A stretch of DNA of 64,000 nucleotides from Escherichia phage A4, in sequence record ON286972. One strand, 5' to 3'. This document shows, in pieces, positions 1 through 25,309 of this stretch. A model generated the notes under the pieces. That model was not told where the DNA came from. It saw only the letters and a list, made by a program, of their open reading frames with translations, and searched no databases. The position numbers and the translations under genes are program-made. How positions within the stretch are numbered: the stretch's first letter is position 1; each line of letters begins with the position of its first letter.

Positions 1-48
1 ATTTCCTCCTTTATTCATTATACTATATTTAATCAAAAAAGAAAACCC

Positions 49-77
49 TTGACACCCTTTCAGTACTGATGTACTAT
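49..77 (+). promoter_or_regulatory. sigma70-like promoter ahead of family A array
   Basis: TTGACA 49-54, 17-bp spacer, TACTAT 72-77; AAGGAGA SD 89-95 before ATG 103. Confidence 0.5.
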
Positions 78-102
78 ATAAGAAATATAAGGAGAATCGT
101 AC

Positions 103-330
103 ATGCCATATGCTCTAAAGTACTACATCAATGAACTAAATGAACTAGAGTACGCAAAGGTTCTCTCTGACCAATCGTGGCTAATTGAACTAAAAAATAA
201 GAAGAGCACTGGGTGTAACCTTATGCTTGGTAGTGCACTGAACACCCTTACTGTGAGCATTGTACACAATACACTATTAGGGGATACCCGTAAACAATTT
301 TTAAACATCTTAGTACTAGTGGCTATATGA
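103..330 (+). CDS. hypothetical small protein, tandem paralog family A
   Basis: 75-aa ORF after strong SD; N-term ALKYYINEL resembles family A KE[YF]Y start. Confidence 0.6.
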   Translation: MPYALKYYINELNELEYAKVLSDQSWLIELKNKKSTGCNLMLGSALNTLTVSIVHNTLLGDTRKQFLNILVLVAI

Positions 331-527
331 ACATTAACCCGTACTACATCAATGCATTGCACCCTGGGCTACAAGATGCAATGAAGAACCAAAAAACAGT
401 ACTGAAAAATGCTAAACGCACTCCAGGACTCCTGAACTCAAACAGGAATAACCTCATCTGGAATGCAATAGAAGGTAACGAAAGTATGCAGTACTATTTC
501 ATCTTAACACTACTATTGGAGTACTAA
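327..527 (+). CDS. hypothetical small protein, family A
   Basis: 66-aa ORF, ATGA start/stop overlap with upstream gene; C-terminal Leu/Tyr tail. Confidence 0.6.
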   Translation: MNINPYYINALHPGLQDAMKNQKTVLKNAKRTPGLLNSNRNNLIWNAIEGNESMQYYFILTLLLEY

Positions 528-528
528 T

Positions 529-738
529 ATGAAAACTGAACATAAAGAATTCTACACCAAATATCTCAGCAACGAAGAACAAATGTTTCTAAGGAGTGTA
601 CCACCTGTAAGTATAGACACACCCAACACAAGGAATTGCTTTAATAATTGTATACGTAGTACTCTAGAAGCTATTGAATACAATAACAAAAATATGCAGT
701 ACTCAAGTTTAATCGGACTAATATACTTCTATGAATAA
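529..738 (+). CDS. hypothetical small protein, family A
   Basis: 69-aa ORF; N-term HKEFYTKYLS; starts 2 nt after previous stop. Confidence 0.65.
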   Translation: MKTEHKEFYTKYLSNEEQMFLRSVPPVSIDTPNTRNCFNNCIRSTLEAIEYNNKNMQYSSLIGLIYFYE

Positions 739-922
739 TCATAAAGATTTCTACTGTAGTAAACTACACGAACAATACAGGGACTCATTCCCTCAAGAAC
801 CTATGAGAAAGAATAGTCCCTTTTATAATTACGATTTCAGGTTGGAGACACGTTATGCAATAGAACAACCATTTACTTCAACTAAGTACCGCTCTATCCT
901 GAACCTCATCTTTAAGTTCTAA
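731..922 (+). CDS. hypothetical small protein, family A
   Basis: 63-aa ORF; N-term NNHKDFY; overlaps previous stop. Confidence 0.6.
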   Translation: MNNHKDFYCSKLHEQYRDSFPQEPMRKNSPFYNYDFRLETRYAIEQPFTSTKYRSILNLIFKF

Positions 923-933
923 AAAGGTACTAT

Positions 934-1143
934 ATGAAAATTACAAACATTCATCAGTACTACATAGATATTCTACCTAAAGATGTACAGTTCATCCTTA
1001 AACAAGAATTCAGTACTTTTAAAAAACTAAAAAGAACCGCACCTAATGTACTCATCCAGCACCAAAAAAATGTAGTTGATAATATTCTACAAGGTGCAAC
1101 AGGGACCGAGTACTTTAATATAGTAAGGCTAATTACATTATAA
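934..1143 (+). CDS. hypothetical small protein, family A
   Basis: 69-aa ORF; N-term IHQYYIDILP. Confidence 0.6.
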   Translation: MKITNIHQYYIDILPKDVQFILKQEFSTFKKLKRTAPNVLIQHQKNVVDNILQGATGTEYFNIVRLITL

Positions 1144-1328
1144 TGAATCATATAAGCTACTATTACCAACAACTATCCGACAGGGACAAGTACAGCCACA
1201 ACTCCCATGTATGGTACTACAAACGCGGTAGTATAAGGGACAAACAACATTACTTCTGTACTGCTATAAAAGAAGTACTAACAACTAAGTACACGTACAG
1301 AGCAGTACTTAAACTTATTGAAATGTAG
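1143..1328 (+). CDS. hypothetical small protein, family A
   Basis: 61-aa ORF; C-term YTYRAVLKLIEM shared with the next three members. Confidence 0.6.
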   Translation: MNHISYYYQQLSDRDKYSHNSHVWYYKRGSIRDKQHYFCTAIKEVLTTKYTYRAVLKLIEM

Positions 1329-1336
1329 AGAATACA

Positions 1337-1516
1337 ATGCTAGAATACTACCTAAGCGTAATTTACCCAGAAGATAGATACGGCTTCAATTACTTCTCAA
1401 TGAGCTATCATTGTAGTTCGCAAAGAAAACAAAGAAAATTACTCCTGAATTGTACTAAATTGGCACAGGACGAAATGTTCACATATAATGAAGTACTGAA
1501 ACTAATTTCTATCTAA
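1337..1516 (+). CDS. hypothetical small protein, family A
   Basis: 59-aa ORF translated by hand (MLEYYLSV...YNEVLKLISI); below the ORF-track length cut-off. Confidence 0.55.
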   Translation: MLEYYLSVIYPEDRYGFNYFSMSYHCSSQRKQRKLLLNCTKLAQDEMFTYNEVLKLISI

Positions 1517-1524
1517 GGTACACT

Positions 1525-1704
1525 ATGCAAGAATTCTATATCTATAAACTCCAGAACAAAGATAGATATATCTATAATCAATTCCAAAGGTACTACACAG
1601 TAGGGAACAAAAGAGATAAAAAACGATACCTGCTATCATGTACAGTAGAAGCACAAAACGAAAAGTACACGTACAGAGAAGTACTGAAACTAATCTCTAT
1701 ATAA
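1525..1704 (+). CDS. hypothetical small protein, family A
   Basis: 59-aa ORF translated by hand (MQEFYIYKL...YREVLKLISI). Confidence 0.55.
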   Translation: MQEFYIYKLQNKDRYIYNQFQRYYTVGNKRDKKRYLLSCTVEAQNEKYTYREVLKLISI

Positions 1705-1714
1705 GGAATAAACT

Positions 1715-1894
1715 ATGCTAGAGTACTACACCGATAATCTCAGTACTAAGGATCGTTTCATGTACGACACCTTCGTGAAGTACTACAACCTGGGAACAAA
1801 AAGTACTAAAACTATTAATCTCAATAGCTGTATTCATCACGTCCTGACAAAAAATAACCCATACAGAGAAATAATCTCGCTTGTAACAGTATAA
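1715..1894 (+). CDS. hypothetical small protein, family A
   Basis: 59-aa ORF translated by hand (MLEYYTDNL...YREIISLVTV). Confidence 0.55.
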   Translation: MLEYYTDNLSTKDRFMYDTFVKYYNLGTKSTKTINLNSCIHHVLTKNNPYREIISLVTV

Positions 1895-1913
1895 GCAATT
1901 TAAGGAGACTAAA

Positions 1914-2585
1914 ATGAAACTCAATCCACAAAGCAAACGATACCTACAGCACTTTAAGTACCTGCAATCAATCCAGGCTGAATCTACCACTAATGCATAT
2001 ACTTATCATCCTAATGTACTAAAGAACCTAAAGAAAAGTAAAAAAACCAGTACAAATGGAGTTAACGTATCAAAGAACCTTGAATTGTACATGAAGAAAA
2101 ATAATATAGCTGTTCATTATATGAATATCTATAATACTGATTTAAAAGTATTGAGTACTAATACGAGCATGAAGGTACTAAAGAACGCATCCTTCATCAT
2201 CCATATGCAGTTGGATAATACCCCGTGCACTTTAATGCTATACTTCGGGAATACATACTTCTTCGGGAATTGTAACACCTCCCACGATGTCAATACAGCA
2301 CAATTCCAAATGGGTGGCATATACAGTATGGGTTCAGAAGAAATACACGATAACATGCATTTCTTCCAACAGCAACGTACAGAAGAAACTAAATCAATTG
2401 TAGAATTCCTCAAAGAACTACAAGGCAAAGAATTATCAGAAGAAGAACTATTCATGTACAGTACTGTAATCAATAATCCTGTACTGTACAAAAACGCGTA
2501 CAATCTAACAAAACATGTACATGAACTTATCAGTACTAATAAGAAAATTCATCACCTCATTACGTATATTACAAACTATGTATAA
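1914..2585 (+). CDS. hypothetical protein with family C-like motif, inside family A array
   Basis: 223-aa ORF after TAAGGAGA SD; carries SEEELFMYSTV, a variant of the family C FQxS motif. Confidence 0.65.
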   Translation: MKLNPQSKRYLQHFKYLQSIQAESTTNAYTYHPNVLKNLKKSKKTSTNGVNVSKNLELYMKKNNIAVHYMNIYNTDLKVLSTNTSMKVLKNASFIIHMQLDNTPCTLMLYFGNTYFFGNCNTSHDVNTAQFQMGGIYSMGSEEIHDNMHFFQQQRTEETKSIVEFLKELQGKELSEEELFMYSTVINNPVLYKNAYNLTKHVHELISTNKKIHHLITYITNYV

Positions 2586-2760
2586 AGAATACTACATAAG
2601 TTTTCTTAGTATTGATCTACAAAAGCTTATTCCCCAAAAACCTGTAGATTTCAAAGATAAGAGCCAAACTATATTCTACCGATATCAAACAGAATCTGCA
2701 ATAAATGAAGATGATATCTATAACCTGTACAATGTACTAACACTTATATACAGGTACTAA
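2578..2760 (+). CDS. hypothetical small protein, family A
   Basis: Internal ATG 2578 gives MYKEYYISFLS start; ORF-track start 2515 judged an upstream extension. Confidence 0.6.
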   Translation: MYKEYYISFLSIDLQKLIPQKPVDFKDKSQTIFYRYQTESAINEDDIYNLYNVLTLIYRY

Positions 2761-2761
2761 T

Positions 2762-2950
2762 ATGCATAAAGAATACTACACAAAATATTTCCCAATGTAC
2801 CTCAGAACTAATCTATTAGATAAACCTCGCGGTATCAATACACAAAACGATAAAAAGTACTTTACTATGTGCACTAAAGCATGTATACAAGATTATGATA
2901 GCTATCATCGAGTACTGTACCACACCCTGTACCTCGCATTCGTGTACTAA
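2762..2950 (+). CDS. hypothetical small protein, family A
   Basis: 62-aa ORF, MHKEYYTKYFP...LYHTLYLAFVY. Confidence 0.65.
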   Translation: MHKEYYTKYFPMYLRTNLLDKPRGINTQNDKKYFTMCTKACIQDYDSYHRVLYHTLYLAFVY

Positions 2951-2959
2951 GGAAATCAT

Positions 2960-3160
2960 ATGCATAAAGAATACTACATAAAAGAACTACCAAAGTTTCT
3001 ACAAGGCAATCTATTAGATGATGAACCTCGCGACATTAACTGTATATACGAAGCTGATTACTTCCGTACATGTACTGAACAAGTACTTAATGAAGAAGTT
3101 AATGAAAACAATTCTCAAGTACAACTGTACCACACTCTGTATCTCGCGTTCCAGTACTAA
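2960..3160 (+). CDS. hypothetical small protein, family A
   Basis: 66-aa ORF, MHKEYYIKELP...LYHTLYLAFQY. Confidence 0.65.
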   Translation: MHKEYYIKELPKFLQGNLLDDEPRDINCIYEADYFRTCTEQVLNEEVNENNSQVQLYHTLYLAFQY

Positions 3161-3168
3161 GGACTAAT

Positions 3169-3351
3169 ATGTATAAAGAATTTTATAAAGATCATCTCCC
3201 AATGCATCTCCAACACCTTGTACCAACAGAACCAATAGGAATAAAAGATCACGCAAAGATAATGTTCCAACAATGTACTAAGTACACCCTAATATATGAT
3301 GACAATCCATATATGCTGTACTACATGGTAATGCTAACATTCAGGTACTAA
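3169..3351 (+). CDS. hypothetical small protein, family A
   Basis: 60-aa ORF, MYKEFYKDHLP...MVMLTFRY. Confidence 0.65.
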   Translation: MYKEFYKDHLPMHLQHLVPTEPIGIKDHAKIMFQQCTKYTLIYDDNPYMLYYMVMLTFRY

Positions 3352-3352
3352 T

Positions 3353-3553
3353 ATGTATAAAGAATACTATATGAGTAAACTATCAACCACCGAAAGAATC
3401 TGGTGCGGAGCCGCCGCCCCCGTTAATCCAAAAAGTGCATACGCAAAAATGTGCTTTAGGAAAGCTACAACGAACTCAATTGAAGCTCTAGAACAAGATA
3501 ACACTAAAGCACTATACTCTAACCTAATGTTGCTAGTATATATCTATGGATAA
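3353..3553 (+). CDS. hypothetical small protein, family A
   Basis: 66-aa ORF, MYKEYYMSKLS. Confidence 0.65.
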   Translation: MYKEYYMSKLSTTERIWCGAAAPVNPKSAYAKMCFRKATTNSIEALEQDNTKALYSNLMLLVYIYG

Positions 3554-3734
3554 TTATAAAGAATTCTACTTAAGTACTCTCCCTACAGTACTATCACTTA
3601 GTGCTCAATATAAAGTTCCCCTGGATAATGCATACTCCAAGTATAACTACTCCCTAACTGTTAAACGCTGTATAGAGAATCTTAGCAGTACTAATCAGTA
3701 CTATAACATCGTACTACTTATATTCAGGTACTAA
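3546..3734 (+). CDS. hypothetical small protein, family A
   Basis: 62-aa ORF, MDNYKEFYLSTLP...LLIFRY; 8-nt overlap with previous gene. Confidence 0.65.
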   Translation: MDNYKEFYLSTLPTVLSLSAQYKVPLDNAYSKYNYSLTVKRCIENLSSTNQYYNIVLLIFRY

Positions 3735-3735
3735 T

Positions 3736-3921
3736 ATGTATAAAGAATACTATAAACAATTTGTTAAAGAGAACTACAAACATGCCGTCCCCGTAATCCC
3801 TTTAAATTCCCATGACCCAAGTTCTATATTCTTGTTTAAGGACGCAATACGTACAGTACTCAATACTAAAGATGAACAGGTGCAGTACGTATTCTTACTA
3901 TTACTTATATACAGACACTAA
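3736..3921 (+). CDS. hypothetical small protein, family A
   Basis: 61-aa ORF, MYKEYYKQFV...LLLIYRH. Confidence 0.65.
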   Translation: MYKEYYKQFVKENYKHAVPVIPLNSHDPSSIFLFKDAIRTVLNTKDEQVQYVFLLLLIYRH

Positions 3922-3938
3922 AGCACTAAGGCACTAAT

Positions 3939-4139
3939 ATGAATAAAGAACATAAAGACTTCTATATAAGAGAACTCAAAGAGAATGAACAAGTATGGAT
4001 TAAATCTCTCATAGAACTACCCTTTAATAGATATGAATTGTATAGATGTACTAATATAGCAATAGACCCTCCTCCTTTTGAAGAGAATGTAGAGTACAAA
4101 CAGTACTACTATATCTTAATGCTTATATATAGGAAGTAA
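3939..4139 (+). CDS. hypothetical small protein, family A
   Basis: 66-aa ORF, MNKEHKDFYIREL...LMLIYRK; last member before the non-coding hub. Confidence 0.65.
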   Translation: MNKEHKDFYIRELKENEQVWIKSLIELPFNRYELYRCTNIAIDPPPFEENVEYKQYYYILMLIYRK

Positions 4140-4800
4140 TATAGCTAGGGGAAGCTCCATAGTGCAAGCATTATACAGGCTTTAACATATGTTGCATATG
4201 TTAAAATTCAGCCTGGACAAATGCGATCACTAGGATTCTCCCCAGGCTAAACCCCGTAATCATAGGTAGTCATAAGTAATCATATATAAACATTTAAGTA
4301 ATCATTTATAATCATGGTAGTGATTAGTATTGAGTACTAGAGTGTAATAGAGTACAGGAAAGTATTCAGTACTGAAGGATTACCCCTATATGATTCAGTA
4401 CTGATATCCCACTAAGTAGGCAAATGAAGTCGCCCAAAATTTACATAATTTTACAGTACTGAACAATTGCAAAACAAATCATTTCCAATCAAAAGTAATC
4501 ACGGAATGACCAGTACTGAAAACTCCCAATCACCTATTCAAAAAAGTTCAATTTACCCTTCGTCAAAAATCCCGAATACCCATTGGGGAAAATTCCGAAT
4601 ACCCCTTGAGGCTCCAGCAAAAAGTTGGTTAGTACTCCATCGTAAATCTGGATCGTAAAAATTTTGGAGTACCTATGAAATAAAAGTTGGATCTTCGAAA
4701 GTTGAAATTTACATTGGGACATATAGGATTAGTGGGATATAATGAGTTTTGAAGAGATACAGAGTATACGATTTCAGTACTGAATGGTGAAAGAAAGTTA

Positions 4801-4828
4801 TTGACTTTATGATTCAGTACTGTATAAT
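4801..4828 (+). promoter_or_regulatory. sigma70-like promoter with no downstream ORF
   Basis: TTGACT 4801-4806, 16-bp spacer, TATAAT 4823-4828; no ORF of 60 aa or more follows. Confidence 0.35.
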
Positions 4829-5204
4829 GTTCTACATAGAGTGATGGATTGCCGCAAACAATTCAGAGCCTTAACCCTCCTGTCGTGAGACAGTACAGAA
4901 GAGATTGAATCCTCCTATGCAGTGGTTCATCTTTGACAACCTCTTTTTTCGTAATATAAACAGTACTGTTATTAACAGAATGGTAGCAGTACTGATATTA
5001 ATCTAATATAATGTTACCATGCAATGTGGTGAATTCCCCTTAACAGTATTCAGTACTACATGATAGTCTTCATCCTCCTAGGGTAACATAGTGAGGGCTA
5101 TGATGGCAGTACTGAATACTCCCTTCTTAAAGATAGATCTATGGTATAGTACTGACGGATTTTGGGCGTAGTAACCCTGGGTGGATTTTGGACGTAGAGA
5201 TGTC

Positions 5205-5350
5205 TAGACCTCCAGATGGCTGGAAGTAAAGATGGCTATCCCTCTAGACGGCTAGACGGCTGGATGGCTAGATTTCTAGATGGCTGTACTGCTAGACGTT
5301 TGGACGGCTAAACGGCTAGATGGTTACACGTCTGGATGTATAGACGGCTA
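5205..5350. repeat. iteron-like array of about 14 contiguous 8-9-bp repeats (consensus RGAYGGCT)
   Basis: tagacggct / agatggct / ggatggct / ggacggct units run head to tail through 5205-5350. Confidence 0.7.
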
Positions 5351-5534
5351 AATCAAAATTTTATACTGTTTTTTTCCATTAGTTCCCCTACCGCGTGGGG
5401 ATGGTTTCCCCGCAGTATCTGGAGTTAGATTTTTCTGAATCTGGAATCATTATCTAATAAACTGGGGGCAATGTCAACCGCCTGGATGAATATTTTTAAA
5501 AAATAATCTAGTACTGAATTTTGGGCGTAACTAT

Positions 5535-5590
5535 GCACCCGGTGGGCTAGAGTCTTTCTCGACTTGATGAAATAATTATAGCAGTACTGG
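5535..5590. repeat. 56-bp dispersed repeat, copy 1
   Basis: gcacccggtgggctag...cttgatgaaataattatagcagtactgg; about 80 percent identical to copy at 9830-9885. Confidence 0.55.
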
Positions 5591-6053
5591 AAAAATAAAG
5601 CAATACCCTGGATGCAAAAAGTTTTAATTAATTTGCTTGCCATCCTGGGGCGTACTATGGTACTATGATTCAGTACTGAGAAAGTGCTTTGACCTGCTAG
5701 GGTGCGGGAGTGTATCCTTTTTAAATTTTATGAATTTTGGACGGATCTTCCCACCCCCTGGGGTATCCGCTTTCTCGCGTCTATGTAGTAATTATACGCT
5801 TTTTTAGTACTGAGTCAATAGCTAAAAACAAAATAATTGAAAATAATTTAACGCGTTTAAACGGCCCGTAAAGCCCTGGATTGGTGGGAGTGGTGCAAAT
5901 GTATAGCTTAGGTGTATTAATGCGTTAGAACGCGATTGAGGCCGTTTTAATGGTATAGTACTGAATAATTGTACTCACTGGATTGATTCAGTACTGAATG
6001 ATAGTACTCCTATATAGAAAGAAAACTATTTTAAAAGTATTTGTAGAAAGTAC

Positions 6054-6081
6054 TTGCATACTATGTTTAACGGCGTATAAT
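6054..6081 (+). promoter_or_regulatory. class A early promoter
   Basis: AGTACTTGCAT -35 region and TATAAT 6076-6081, 16-bp spacer; followed by G-rich leader and ATG 6138. Confidence 0.55.
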
Positions 6082-6137
6082 GTTTTACATCGAGACGGGG
6101 GAAACGCTCCTAACTCACTTTAATAGGAATTAAAACG

Positions 6138-6500
6138 ATGGCGACTCAAATCACTAAAATCATTGCTAACCTGGTTAACTTTCGCGAAGAGATGAAAGAT
6201 CTTCCGGCTGAGACTGTAAAGATTCATATTTCAGCTTATCGGGAATTGATTGCAATGTTGCCGCTTAAGCGTGAACAATACGCCGCTACTGTGATGCTTG
6301 ATGCGATGATCCACAAGATGATTGCCAGTGATTTAACGATGGCTTATCAGTACATGGGCGAACTATTTGCGGTGTATAGTAAACCAGTGCCTGGGATGGA
6401 AAGTACCGAAGTATTGCACGGCTTAAACTTAAAACAAGATGCATGGGATAATATGCCTCGTTTCCTGGTATGGGCTGACAGTGGCAAGATTTACGAATAA
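6138..6500 (+). CDS. hypothetical protein
   Basis: 120-aa ORF downstream of promoter and purine-rich SD. Confidence 0.7.
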   Translation: MATQITKIIANLVNFREEMKDLPAETVKIHISAYRELIAMLPLKREQYAATVMLDAMIHKMIASDLTMAYQYMGELFAVYSKPVPGMESTEVLHGLNLKQDAWDNMPRFLVWADSGKIYE

Positions 6501-6914: not shown

Positions 6915-7154
6915 ATGGCTAAATCAAAAATGTTCTTAGGTCACAAAAACAAAACTCAATGGAATGTAAGCCTTTGGATTAATAACGATGAATCATTATA
7001 CCGGTTGGCCCAGGACTTTATTGCCGCTAACACTAATCGCAATGATGCGGCCCGTCATATGATGCTATTTTTAGAACAGACTGGACAAGATAAAACGCCG
7101 GACGGATTCAAGTACAGTACTACGGCGATCCGTGCGGCGATGGTTGGAATGTAA
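6915..7154 (+). CDS. hypothetical protein
   Basis: 79-aa ORF; SD GAGGA 8 nt upstream. Confidence 0.7.
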   Translation: MAKSKMFLGHKNKTQWNVSLWINNDESLYRLAQDFIAANTNRNDAARHMMLFLEQTGQDKTPDGFKYSTTAIRAAMVGM

Positions 7155-9541: not shown

Positions 9542-9763
9542 ATGGCTAATATCACTACTCTTTCCCAACTGGAAGCACTGGTTAAATCTATGCGGGAACA
9601 TGCCGACAATATCGGCGTAAAAGATCCAGCCGTTTGCTTCTGCGACGAATTGAATGATGATACCCTGGTAATAGCAGAAGTCCAGGACGTTTCTAACTAT
9701 TCCTCGCGTTACACTGGCGGTGTAGCAAATAAAGGTGACTTCTGTTTATACCTTACAAAATAA
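9542..9763 (+). CDS. hypothetical protein
   Basis: ATG 9542 after GAGGAAAA SD. Confidence 0.65.
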   Translation: MANITTLSQLEALVKSMREHADNIGVKDPAVCFCDELNDDTLVIAEVQDVSNYSSRYTGGVANKGDFCLYLTK

Positions 9764-16643: not shown

Positions 16644-16649
16644 GATTAT

Positions 16650-25239: not shown

Positions 25240-25278
25240 TGAATTAAATGATTCAGTACTAAAACTATTAGTCAGAAA

Positions 25279-25309
25279 ATAATTGAGTCAAAAAATAATT
25301 GACTCAATT
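25279..25309. promoter_or_regulatory. 11-bp perfect inverted repeat, operator-like
   Basis: TAATTGAGTCA-9 nt-TGACTCAATTA, about 130 bp upstream of a TATAAT at 25444-25449. Confidence 0.45.

Follow-up and report, generated by a model that had tools for sequence, protein, structure and literature searches.

The window analysed here, a stretch of 64,000 nucleotides from Escherichia phage A4 (sequence record ON286972), contains a tandem array of short repeats in a region devoid of genes. This region, pointed out in an earlier sequence-only reading, extends from 4140 to 6137 and is the longest stretch of the window without a plus-strand open reading frame (ORF) of at least 60 amino acids (1998 bp, the next longest being 822 bp). 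The same reading had described about 14 contiguous repeats of 8–9 bp; the array itself was recovered, while its period turned out to be strictly 8 bp, its size about 19 units and its start about 15 bp earlier. Tandem Repeats Finder reported a period of 8 with 13.4 copies at 5244–5350, a repeat search returned 16 overlapping copies at 5196–5357 with all spacings exactly 8 bp, and an in-register reading gave 19–20 units from about 5190 to 5349 with zero indels. Autocorrelation at lag 8 reached 0.57 at the array, the top value in the 64 kb (window mean 0.276, sd 0.041), and was higher still at lags 16 and 32 (0.64). The array is far beyond chance. A coding repeat was rejected, since the array is not spanned by any ORF and its period of 8 does not fit a triplet reading frame, not being divisible by 3.

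Between positions 4100 and 6200, the window matches 41 phage records at 84–91% identity, nearly all of them from Asteriusvirus (121Q, PBECO4, G17 and relatives), and this similarity places it in that genus, as part of a 121Q/PBECO4-like jumbo coliphage. Its relatives are jumbo myoviruses with genomes of about 350 kb and with E. coli and Salmonella as hosts. Several of their records include the direct terminal repeat (DTR) in both copies, and the left end in the window was set by homology to three such genomes. The DTR is annotated as 1–21,525 in the record of vB_Ec-M-J and measures 20,668 bp in G17, as obtained by comparing both record ends. In fEgEco12, the DTR has 20,993 bp, with termini established by PhageTerm and restriction digests (PMC13070987). 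The first base of the DTR is identical in these three phages (AGTAGGCAGAGG…) and aligns to position 4415 of the window, 12 bp after a CAGTACTGA motif.

On this alignment, the array starts about 775 bp (0.8 kb) inside the inferred left genome end, and the mapping of termini that the sequence-only reading had proposed as a check thus bore out, by homology, a terminus close to the array. Since the DTR start maps to 4415, the gene-free region corresponds to a 1.7-kb untranslated leader at the left genome end; the early genes start at 6138 and are all on the plus strand. If the right boundary lies at about 25393, the DTR of the window would comprise approximately 20,979 bp, close to the length in fEgEco12. 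A complete collapsed DTR of about 21 kb would then be contained in the window, with the right boundary motif GGGCGGGTAA…/TTAGC. The coordinates of these and the other features are collected in Table 1.

Table 1. Features of the array region in the window and arrays located in other phages (window coordinates for the window, coordinates of the named phage otherwise; a slash within a sequence marks the boundary).
Sequence	Feature	Position	Strand	Remarks
Window	Left physical genome end, DTR first base	4415	+	…CAGTACTGATATCCCACTA/AGTAGGCA…; inferred, homologous base in three relatives
Window	Untranslated DTR leader, 1.7 kb, holding the array	4415–6137	+	Between genome end and first early gene (6138)
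Window	Sigma-70-like promoter match TTGACT-16-TATAAT (11/12)	4801–4828	+	Points to array, about 360 bp upstream; kept in fEgEco12
Window	Two GGATTTTGGRCGTA boxes running straight into the array	5157–5196	+	26 bp apart; further copies at 5516 and 5732
Window	Tandem array of 8-bp metbox-like units	5190–5349	+	Frame 5190+8k; modal unit AGACGGCT
Window	Sigma-70-like promoter match TTGACA-17-GATAAT (11/12)	5449–5477	−	Points into array, about 95 bp off; kept in fEgEco12
Window	Sigma-70-like promoter match (11/12)	5818–5791	−	Third near-consensus match in the leader
Window	DTR right boundary	~25393	+	GGGCGGGTAATTGC/TTAGCTCG; placed by similarity of motifs, with less certainty than the left end
CBB	Array	685–804		DTR 22,456 bp
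XbC2	Array	648–775		DTR 17,581 bp
PGT2	Array	38–109		Exact 260-bp terminal repeat
PR1	Array	9,620–9,691		Terminal repeat 10,461 bp
VF16	Array	~6,990–7,029		Terminal repeat 7,427 bp

The GC skew changes its sign at about 4.0–4.4 kb and is positive from there to the end of the window. An inflection of the skew had been suggested by the sequence-only reading as a check on a replication origin, and a sign change does lie within about 1 kb of the array, yet it coincides with the inferred terminus, 0.8–1.2 kb to the left, rather than with the array. The skew amounts to about −0.16 over an array of small-ORF paralogues (103–4139) and to about +0.1 rightward, and ORFs lie on the plus strand on both sides.

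Further repeats accompany the two DTR boundaries. Tandem TAAGTAATCAT-type repeats (periods 10–12 and 22) occupy 4256–4316, just outside the left boundary, and a related copy is found inside the DTR at 4477–4501. At 4554–4604, some 140 bp inside the genome end, there are about 2.2 copies of a 23-bp direct repeat unit (TACCC.TCG.CAAAAATCCCGAA), which has diverged in relatives. At 25261–25307, some 100 bp to the left of the inferred right boundary, a repeat and palindrome of AAAATAATTGAGTCAA / TTGAGTCAAAAAATAATTGACTCAA is preceded by a GATTCAGTACTAAAA motif. In addition, an 8-bp palindrome, CAGTACTG, is present in 72 copies in the 64-kb window, where 0.86 are expected, in coding and non-coding sequence alike and most densely at 4367–5996. 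The 1.7-kb leader region holds 12 exact copies, or about 19 when near-matches are included; one copy precedes the inferred genome end by 12 bp, and others lie inside early promoter spacers in several cases (TTGACA…CAGTACTGTATAAT). The palindrome thus seems to be iterated throughout the genome.

Closer to the array, the repeated GATTTTGGRCGKA boxes noted previously were confirmed in four copies (5157, 5183, 5516 and 5732) against 0.14 expected. Of these four boxes, also readable as GRATTTTGGRCGKA, two are directly preceded by AGTACTGA, and those at 5516 and 5732 begin a 66-nt direct repeat (5515–5580 and 5731–5796; 71% identical). Two of the three promoter matches in the leader converge on the array. 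The GGGG/CCCC hairpin that had been remarked on is present at about 5384–5401, but it is not exceptional (−6.5 kcal/mol, z −1.7). A terminator hairpin at 5380–5405 was rejected, given this weakness and a T-run that is on the wrong side whichever strand is considered, and Rfam searches of 4100–6300 at permissive thresholds revealed no relevant known RNA.

When read in a frame one base later than the one first proposed, the array units follow the pattern RGAYGKCT. The units (AGACGGCT, AGATGGCT, GGATGGCT, AGACGTTT, ACACGTCT and others) are one or two positions off AGACGTCT, the consensus of the "metbox" recognised by MetJ, the methionine repressor of E. coli. Operators of MetJ consist of directly abutting 8-bp boxes, each binding one dimer, and at least two adjacent boxes are required (PMC3228920). 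The array was therefore scored with the published MetJ information matrix and its thresholds (Augustus & Spicer 2011, PMC3228920), according to which each box must reach at least a quarter of the consensus score and the site as a whole at least the consensus score (12.58 bits). Sixteen of the 19 contiguous slots from 5198 pass the single-box threshold, forming runs of 3, 1, 5 and 7 adjacent boxes. The array total is 126 bits, with a mean of 7.9 bits per box, and the longer runs sum to 22.5, 40.2 and 55.8 bits, compared with the threshold of 12.58. Zero sites elsewhere in the 64-kb window satisfy the same operator rules, and the longest run in 50 shuffled windows was 3 boxes.

As a control, the same code was applied to the metJ-metB-metF region of E. 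coli K-12, where it returned solely the two known operators, that of metB/J with 4 boxes and 31.2 bits (7.8 per box) and that of metF with 4 boxes and 24.9 bits, values identical to those of Table S1 in the same paper. The per-box score of the array is thus at the level of the metB operator (7.9 vs 7.8 bits). The exact 8-mers that dominate the array, AGACGGCT, AGATGGCT and GGATGGCT, also occur in natural met operators listed in that table (PMC3228920). In its units of exactly 8 bp, abutting without a spacer and passing the matrix thresholds, the array resembles a MetJ operator. It departs from one in size, as 16 passing boxes in 19 slots stand against 2–5 boxes in the natural operators compared and in the E. 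coli control, which makes it about four times longer than any bacterial operator among those compared. It also departs in position: promoter-like sites come no closer than about 95 bp on one side and 360 bp on the other, and neighbouring ORFs have no methionine function. A host with MetJ is indicated by the relatives of the window phage, which infect E. coli and Salmonella, and MetJ is found in all free-living Enterobacterales (PMC3228920). The array is rather likely to be a very long tandem run of host MetJ boxes that is bound by MetJ.

The array is kept in all 16 Asteriusvirus genomes examined, with 12–19 slots and 10–17 passing boxes. Arrays outside Asteriusvirus were found by sensitive BLAST with the array region and then scored with the MetJ matrix; arrays found in this way are bound to look like the query and may have a common origin with it, which limits their independence. 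Among Mimasvirus jumbo phages, XbC2 carries 14 boxes and CBB 13. In T5-like phages, PR1 has 9 near-consensus boxes (e.g., AAACGTCT GGACGTCT), Pontus 15, the Aeromonas phage AhSzq-1 28 and VF16 5, while the T7-like PGT2 and phiKT have 9 boxes each. In phages whose terminal repeats are given in the annotation or can be deduced, the array always lies inside the repeat, 38–840 bp from a boundary. It makes up 72 bp of the 260-bp terminal repeat of PGT2, and in T5-like phages it is found in the left terminal repeat, in the untranslated segment on the right-hand side. The record of Cilsick starts inside its own array, but it is flagged as circular, and hence no end is mapped by it. T5 itself and the first 4 kb of the terminal repeat of fENko-Kae01 contain no metbox array, which suggests an accessory element.

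Scanning IMG/VR by pattern added 20 further loci, including arrays of 8–36 boxes, often less than 400 bp from a contig end, a position that is ambiguous as tandem repeats also break assemblies. The longest run observed comprises 36 consecutive AGATGTCT/AGATGTCC boxes (356 bits) at 16647–16934 of contig 3300031658_004036, 90 bp from the contig end; the primase of this phage is only about 32% identical to Achromobacter phage primases. Nucleotide searches with the array-bearing metagenomic contigs matched neither a host nor a relative. A protein search with one of them, L035, led to T5-like phages, the nearest being Vibrio phages.

The hosts named in the records of the BLAST matches support the MetJ reading. 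The occurrence of MetJ is restricted to Enterobacterales, Pasteurellales, Vibrionales, Aeromonadales and Alteromonadales (PMC3228920). Host orders with MetJ account for 96 of 97 BLAST matches obtained with the window query and for 94 of 95 obtained with an Aeromonas phage array (about 99%), although this argument is weakened by the fact that the array-bearing families mostly infect such hosts anyway. The exception is XbC2, whose reported host, Xanthomonas vesicatoria, lacks MetJ. The GC content of XbC2 is 37.5%, compared with about 65% for the reported host, and this phage is more than 50% similar to phages of Erwinia, Pectobacterium and Serratia.

A binder encoded by the phages themselves was also sought. 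A tblastn search for a MetJ homologue in 50,697 phage records found none apart from records of bacterial contaminants, and a phage-encoded MetJ was rejected on this ground. Pfam searches of the 20 ORFs nearest to the array gave no ribbon-helix-helix, MetJ or other DNA-binding match. A linked binder gene was likewise rejected, as the proteins flanking the array in five phage groups have no cross-family similarity. Taken together with the host orders and the promoter placement described below, these results make a host factor more probable than a phage protein travelling with the array.

According to the sequence-only reading, arrays of this type serve as binding platforms for initiator, partition or terminase proteins, so that a replication origin, packaging site or centromere-like site might be present. 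What holds of this idea is the anatomy of a binding platform near a genome end. The location agrees with it: the inferred left end is 775 bp away, no other non-coding stretch is as long as the one around the array, the skew changes its sign within about 1 kb, and the distance to the repeat boundary is below 1 kb in all families with annotated repeats. The share of the PGT2 terminal repeat that is filled by the array (72 of 260 bp) likewise hints at an end-related role. However, the specific assignments are not borne out. The units are contiguous 8-mers, unlike the spaced 17–22-bp units of iteron origins, there are zero DnaA boxes in 4140–6137, and none of the 20 nearest ORFs has a domain recognisable as that of an initiator, ParB or other DNA-binding protein; their few Pfam matches include no member of the ParA/ParB family. 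The skew flips at the terminus rather than at the array.

As for a terminase site, the array lies 775 bp from the inferred left end here and 38 bp from it in PGT2, and thus near the cut but not at it; T5 and fENko-Kae01 (the latter in the first 4 kb of its terminal repeat) have no array although they package in the same way, and the number of slots drifts between 12 and 19 within one genus. Furthermore, T7-like, T5-like and Rak2-like phages use one unit sequence and yet share no array-flanking protein, which makes a family-specific initiator, ParB or terminase subunit an unlikely binder. The array is thus probably a binding platform near the terminus, whereas its being an origin, a packaging site or a centromere appears improbable, and an iteron-like platform for one of these phage proteins is considered unlikely. 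Two related candidates were rejected: a DnaA-box origin or analogue of the T5 injection stop, given that the region has no DnaA boxes, and Chi-like sites (GCTGGTGG), which the units match at 6 of 8 positions only, in an orientation that is wrong for protection of the left end.

Another protein with metbox-like specificity, either a phage ribbon-helix-helix protein or a different host factor, could bind the array instead of MetJ. One reason to consider it is position 6 of the box, where G is found in about 60% of the array units, the sole systematic departure from the metbox; it is frequent in all three phage families and might reflect the preference of such a protein. The persistence of the array in XbC2, with its reported MetJ-less host, points in the same direction, and most small early proteins of the window phage have no known fold or function. 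On the other hand, no flanking gene is common to the families, a MetJ-like gene is absent from all 50,697 phage records, and G at position 6 can be explained otherwise. In natural metboxes, this position is T in 87% of cases and G in 10%, the commonest deviation (PMC3228920). Single-strand folding yields −23 kcal/mol for the real array and −95 kcal/mol for an ideal array of (AGACGTCT)x19, so the breaking of the box palindrome by G may allow a long array to avoid hairpins. A binder other than MetJ seems quite improbable.

The least probable alternative is a neutral, slippage-prone 8-bp satellite without a binding partner, resembling metboxes by chance. Slippage would account for the array lengths in Asteriusvirus, where close relatives differ in copy number always by exact multiples of 8 bp, and some metagenomic matches are near-perfect simple repeats at contig ends. 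Likewise, when a degenerate 4-box pattern was run over bacterial genomes, the matches listed included tandem repeats of 8 bp from numerous MetJ-less bacteria, Streptomyces and Gemmatimonadales among them; because such generic repeats from MetJ-less phyla are among them, this pattern is unspecific on its own. Nevertheless, only 0.7% of random 8-bp tandem units would be expected to reach 7.9 bits or more in any rotation. Outer degenerate units are conserved across the 16 genomes, and the register of the array is maintained between Asteriusvirus and Mimasvirus. The arrays of other families centre on the MetJ consensus and not on the unit of the window, as the PR1 boxes illustrate.

The differences between units argue against a decaying satellite as well. 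When equal numbers of random substitutions, with transitions favoured 2:1, were simulated, the expected score was 50.6±14.5 bits for the window array, against 127 observed, and 348±36 bits for eight pooled arrays, against 846 observed; the observed score was reached in 0 of 5000 simulations. In these comparisons, units that arose by recent duplication are not independent, and the span was set by passing boxes in 5 of the 8 arrays, while that of the window was set independently by repeat finders. The imperfect units thus stay within the sequence space tolerated by the metbox far beyond random decay, and, by this measure, the differences between them are biased to changes that the metbox tolerates. 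A neutral satellite is therefore regarded as very unlikely.

Under the MetJ reading, host MetJ dimers with their co-repressor, S-adenosylmethionine (SAM), would bind one per box and polymerise cooperatively, and the resulting filament of MetJ·SAM would coat about 150 bp of each copy of the terminal repeat. The lack of consistent promoter placement argues against a classical promoter-occluding role. In the window, neither a promoter overlapping the array nor a methionine gene adjoining it was found, and nothing comparable to the promoter-like sites of the window was detected near the arrays of PGT2 and PR1. An operator of the classical, promoter-covering type was rejected accordingly. As some relatives do without the array, it is probably an accessory element of host manipulation and not part of the core machinery of replication or packaging.

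The consequence considered likeliest is titration. As the genome multiplies, the arrays may come to outnumber the MetJ of the cell, so that the repressor would be soaked up as by a sponge and the synthesis of methionine and SAM would be de-repressed. A cell contains roughly a thousand MetJ molecules. One genome would offer about 32 boxes, and a hundred replicated genomes about 3,000. A device that works by dosage would be in keeping with several features: copy number varies, there are more boxes than repression requires, each genome has the array twice, and its distribution is that of an accessory element.

Alternatively, the filament may act as a SAM-dependent nucleoprotein block near the repeat boundary, which could stop read-through, stall replication forks or mark the junction. 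The constant closeness to the boundary, and above all the presence of the array in the 260-bp repeat of PGT2, would fit such a block. In a SAM-sensing variant, the MetJ filament would gate an end-related step, namely read-through, fork passage, entry or packaging. A sponge and a roadblock are inseparable by sequence alone. In its widest form, the MetJ reading would mean that lytic phages with DTRs from at least three unrelated families (Rak2-like jumbo myoviruses, T5-like siphoviruses and T7-like podoviruses) carry an end-located "super-operator" for host MetJ, acting as a sponge or as a SAM-sensing filament gate; this is put forward tentatively, as a possibility slightly short of an even chance.

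If the MetJ reading is true, it would account for a conserved and so far unexplained array in the terminal repeats of jumbo coliphages and certain T5-like and T7-like phages. It would also indicate that phages can handle or sense the methionine and SAM metabolism of the host by means of DNA alone. Such arrays would represent a class of cis-acting phage elements that hijack a host metabolic regulator without encoding a protein. The role of untranslated, repeat-rich ends in terminal-repeat phages also becomes testable with simple reagents. No relevant paper linking MetJ, metboxes or AGACGTCT with phages turned up in full-text searches, and the genome papers on Asteriusvirus, CBB and XbC2 do not describe the repeat.

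Among known systems, the closest likeness is to the MetJ operators of E. coli (metA, metB/J, metC, metE/R, metF, metK and metNIQ), which share with the array contiguous spacer-less 8-bp units of the same consensus family. They differ in having 2–5 boxes in the operators compared and in lying at met promoters, whereas the array has 16–19 boxes in a phage terminal repeat. The phage boxes are also asymmetric because position 6 is often G. A different route to the same metabolism is taken by phage SAM lyases (T3 gene 0.3 and Svi3-3), which raise methionine biosynthesis through the MetJ/SAM system (PMC7877911) and show that phages are known to disturb this regulon. They act enzymatically, by destroying the co-repressor, unlike a DNA element that would bind the repressor, and the array would complement them.

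Titration of regulators by decoy sites has precedents in datA, which acts on DnaA, and in operator arrays on multicopy plasmids. As in the role proposed for the array, clustered sites of high capacity sequester a regulator there without controlling an adjacent promoter. Unlike decoys of the datA type, the array is borne by a lytic phage and would be aimed at a host metabolic repressor.

Host-protein boxes at the ends of phage genomes have been proposed before. The left terminal repeat of T5 contains conserved DnaA boxes in an untranslated "injection stop signal" that was suggested to bind host DnaA (Davison, bioRxiv 10.1101/866236). Like the array, this region is an untranslated, repeat-rich segment of a terminal repeat near its boundary with a host DNA-binding protein as its proposed partner, and the metbox arrays of PR1 and VF16 occupy the equivalent segment. 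T5 differs from the window in having about 8 spaced DnaA boxes in inverted repeats (IRD'/IRC') and no metbox array, while the window has its array at the other repeat boundary, upstream of the early genes, and no DnaA boxes in the leader region. Davison's paper covers PR1 and does not mention MetJ (bioRxiv 10.1101/866236). If the MetJ reading holds, the arrays would be a second case, beside the T5 proposal, of clusters of host-protein boxes at repeat boundaries.

The terminal repeat of T7 provides a further parallel. It is reportedly flanked by the short-repeat arrays SRL and SRR, which Dunn and Studier are said to have described in 1983 and which consist of irregularly spaced CCTAAAG-type units that are not metbox-like. 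In common with the array, these are short direct repeats at or in the terminal repeat of a DTR phage, with no assigned function. The T7-like PGT2 differs from T7 in carrying true 8-bp metbox units inside its 260-bp repeat. Directly after this repeat, at 261–330, PGT2 has a run of ATCTATCTTTTT-type repeats, which resemble the concatemer-junction pause signal of T7 (ATCTGTT).
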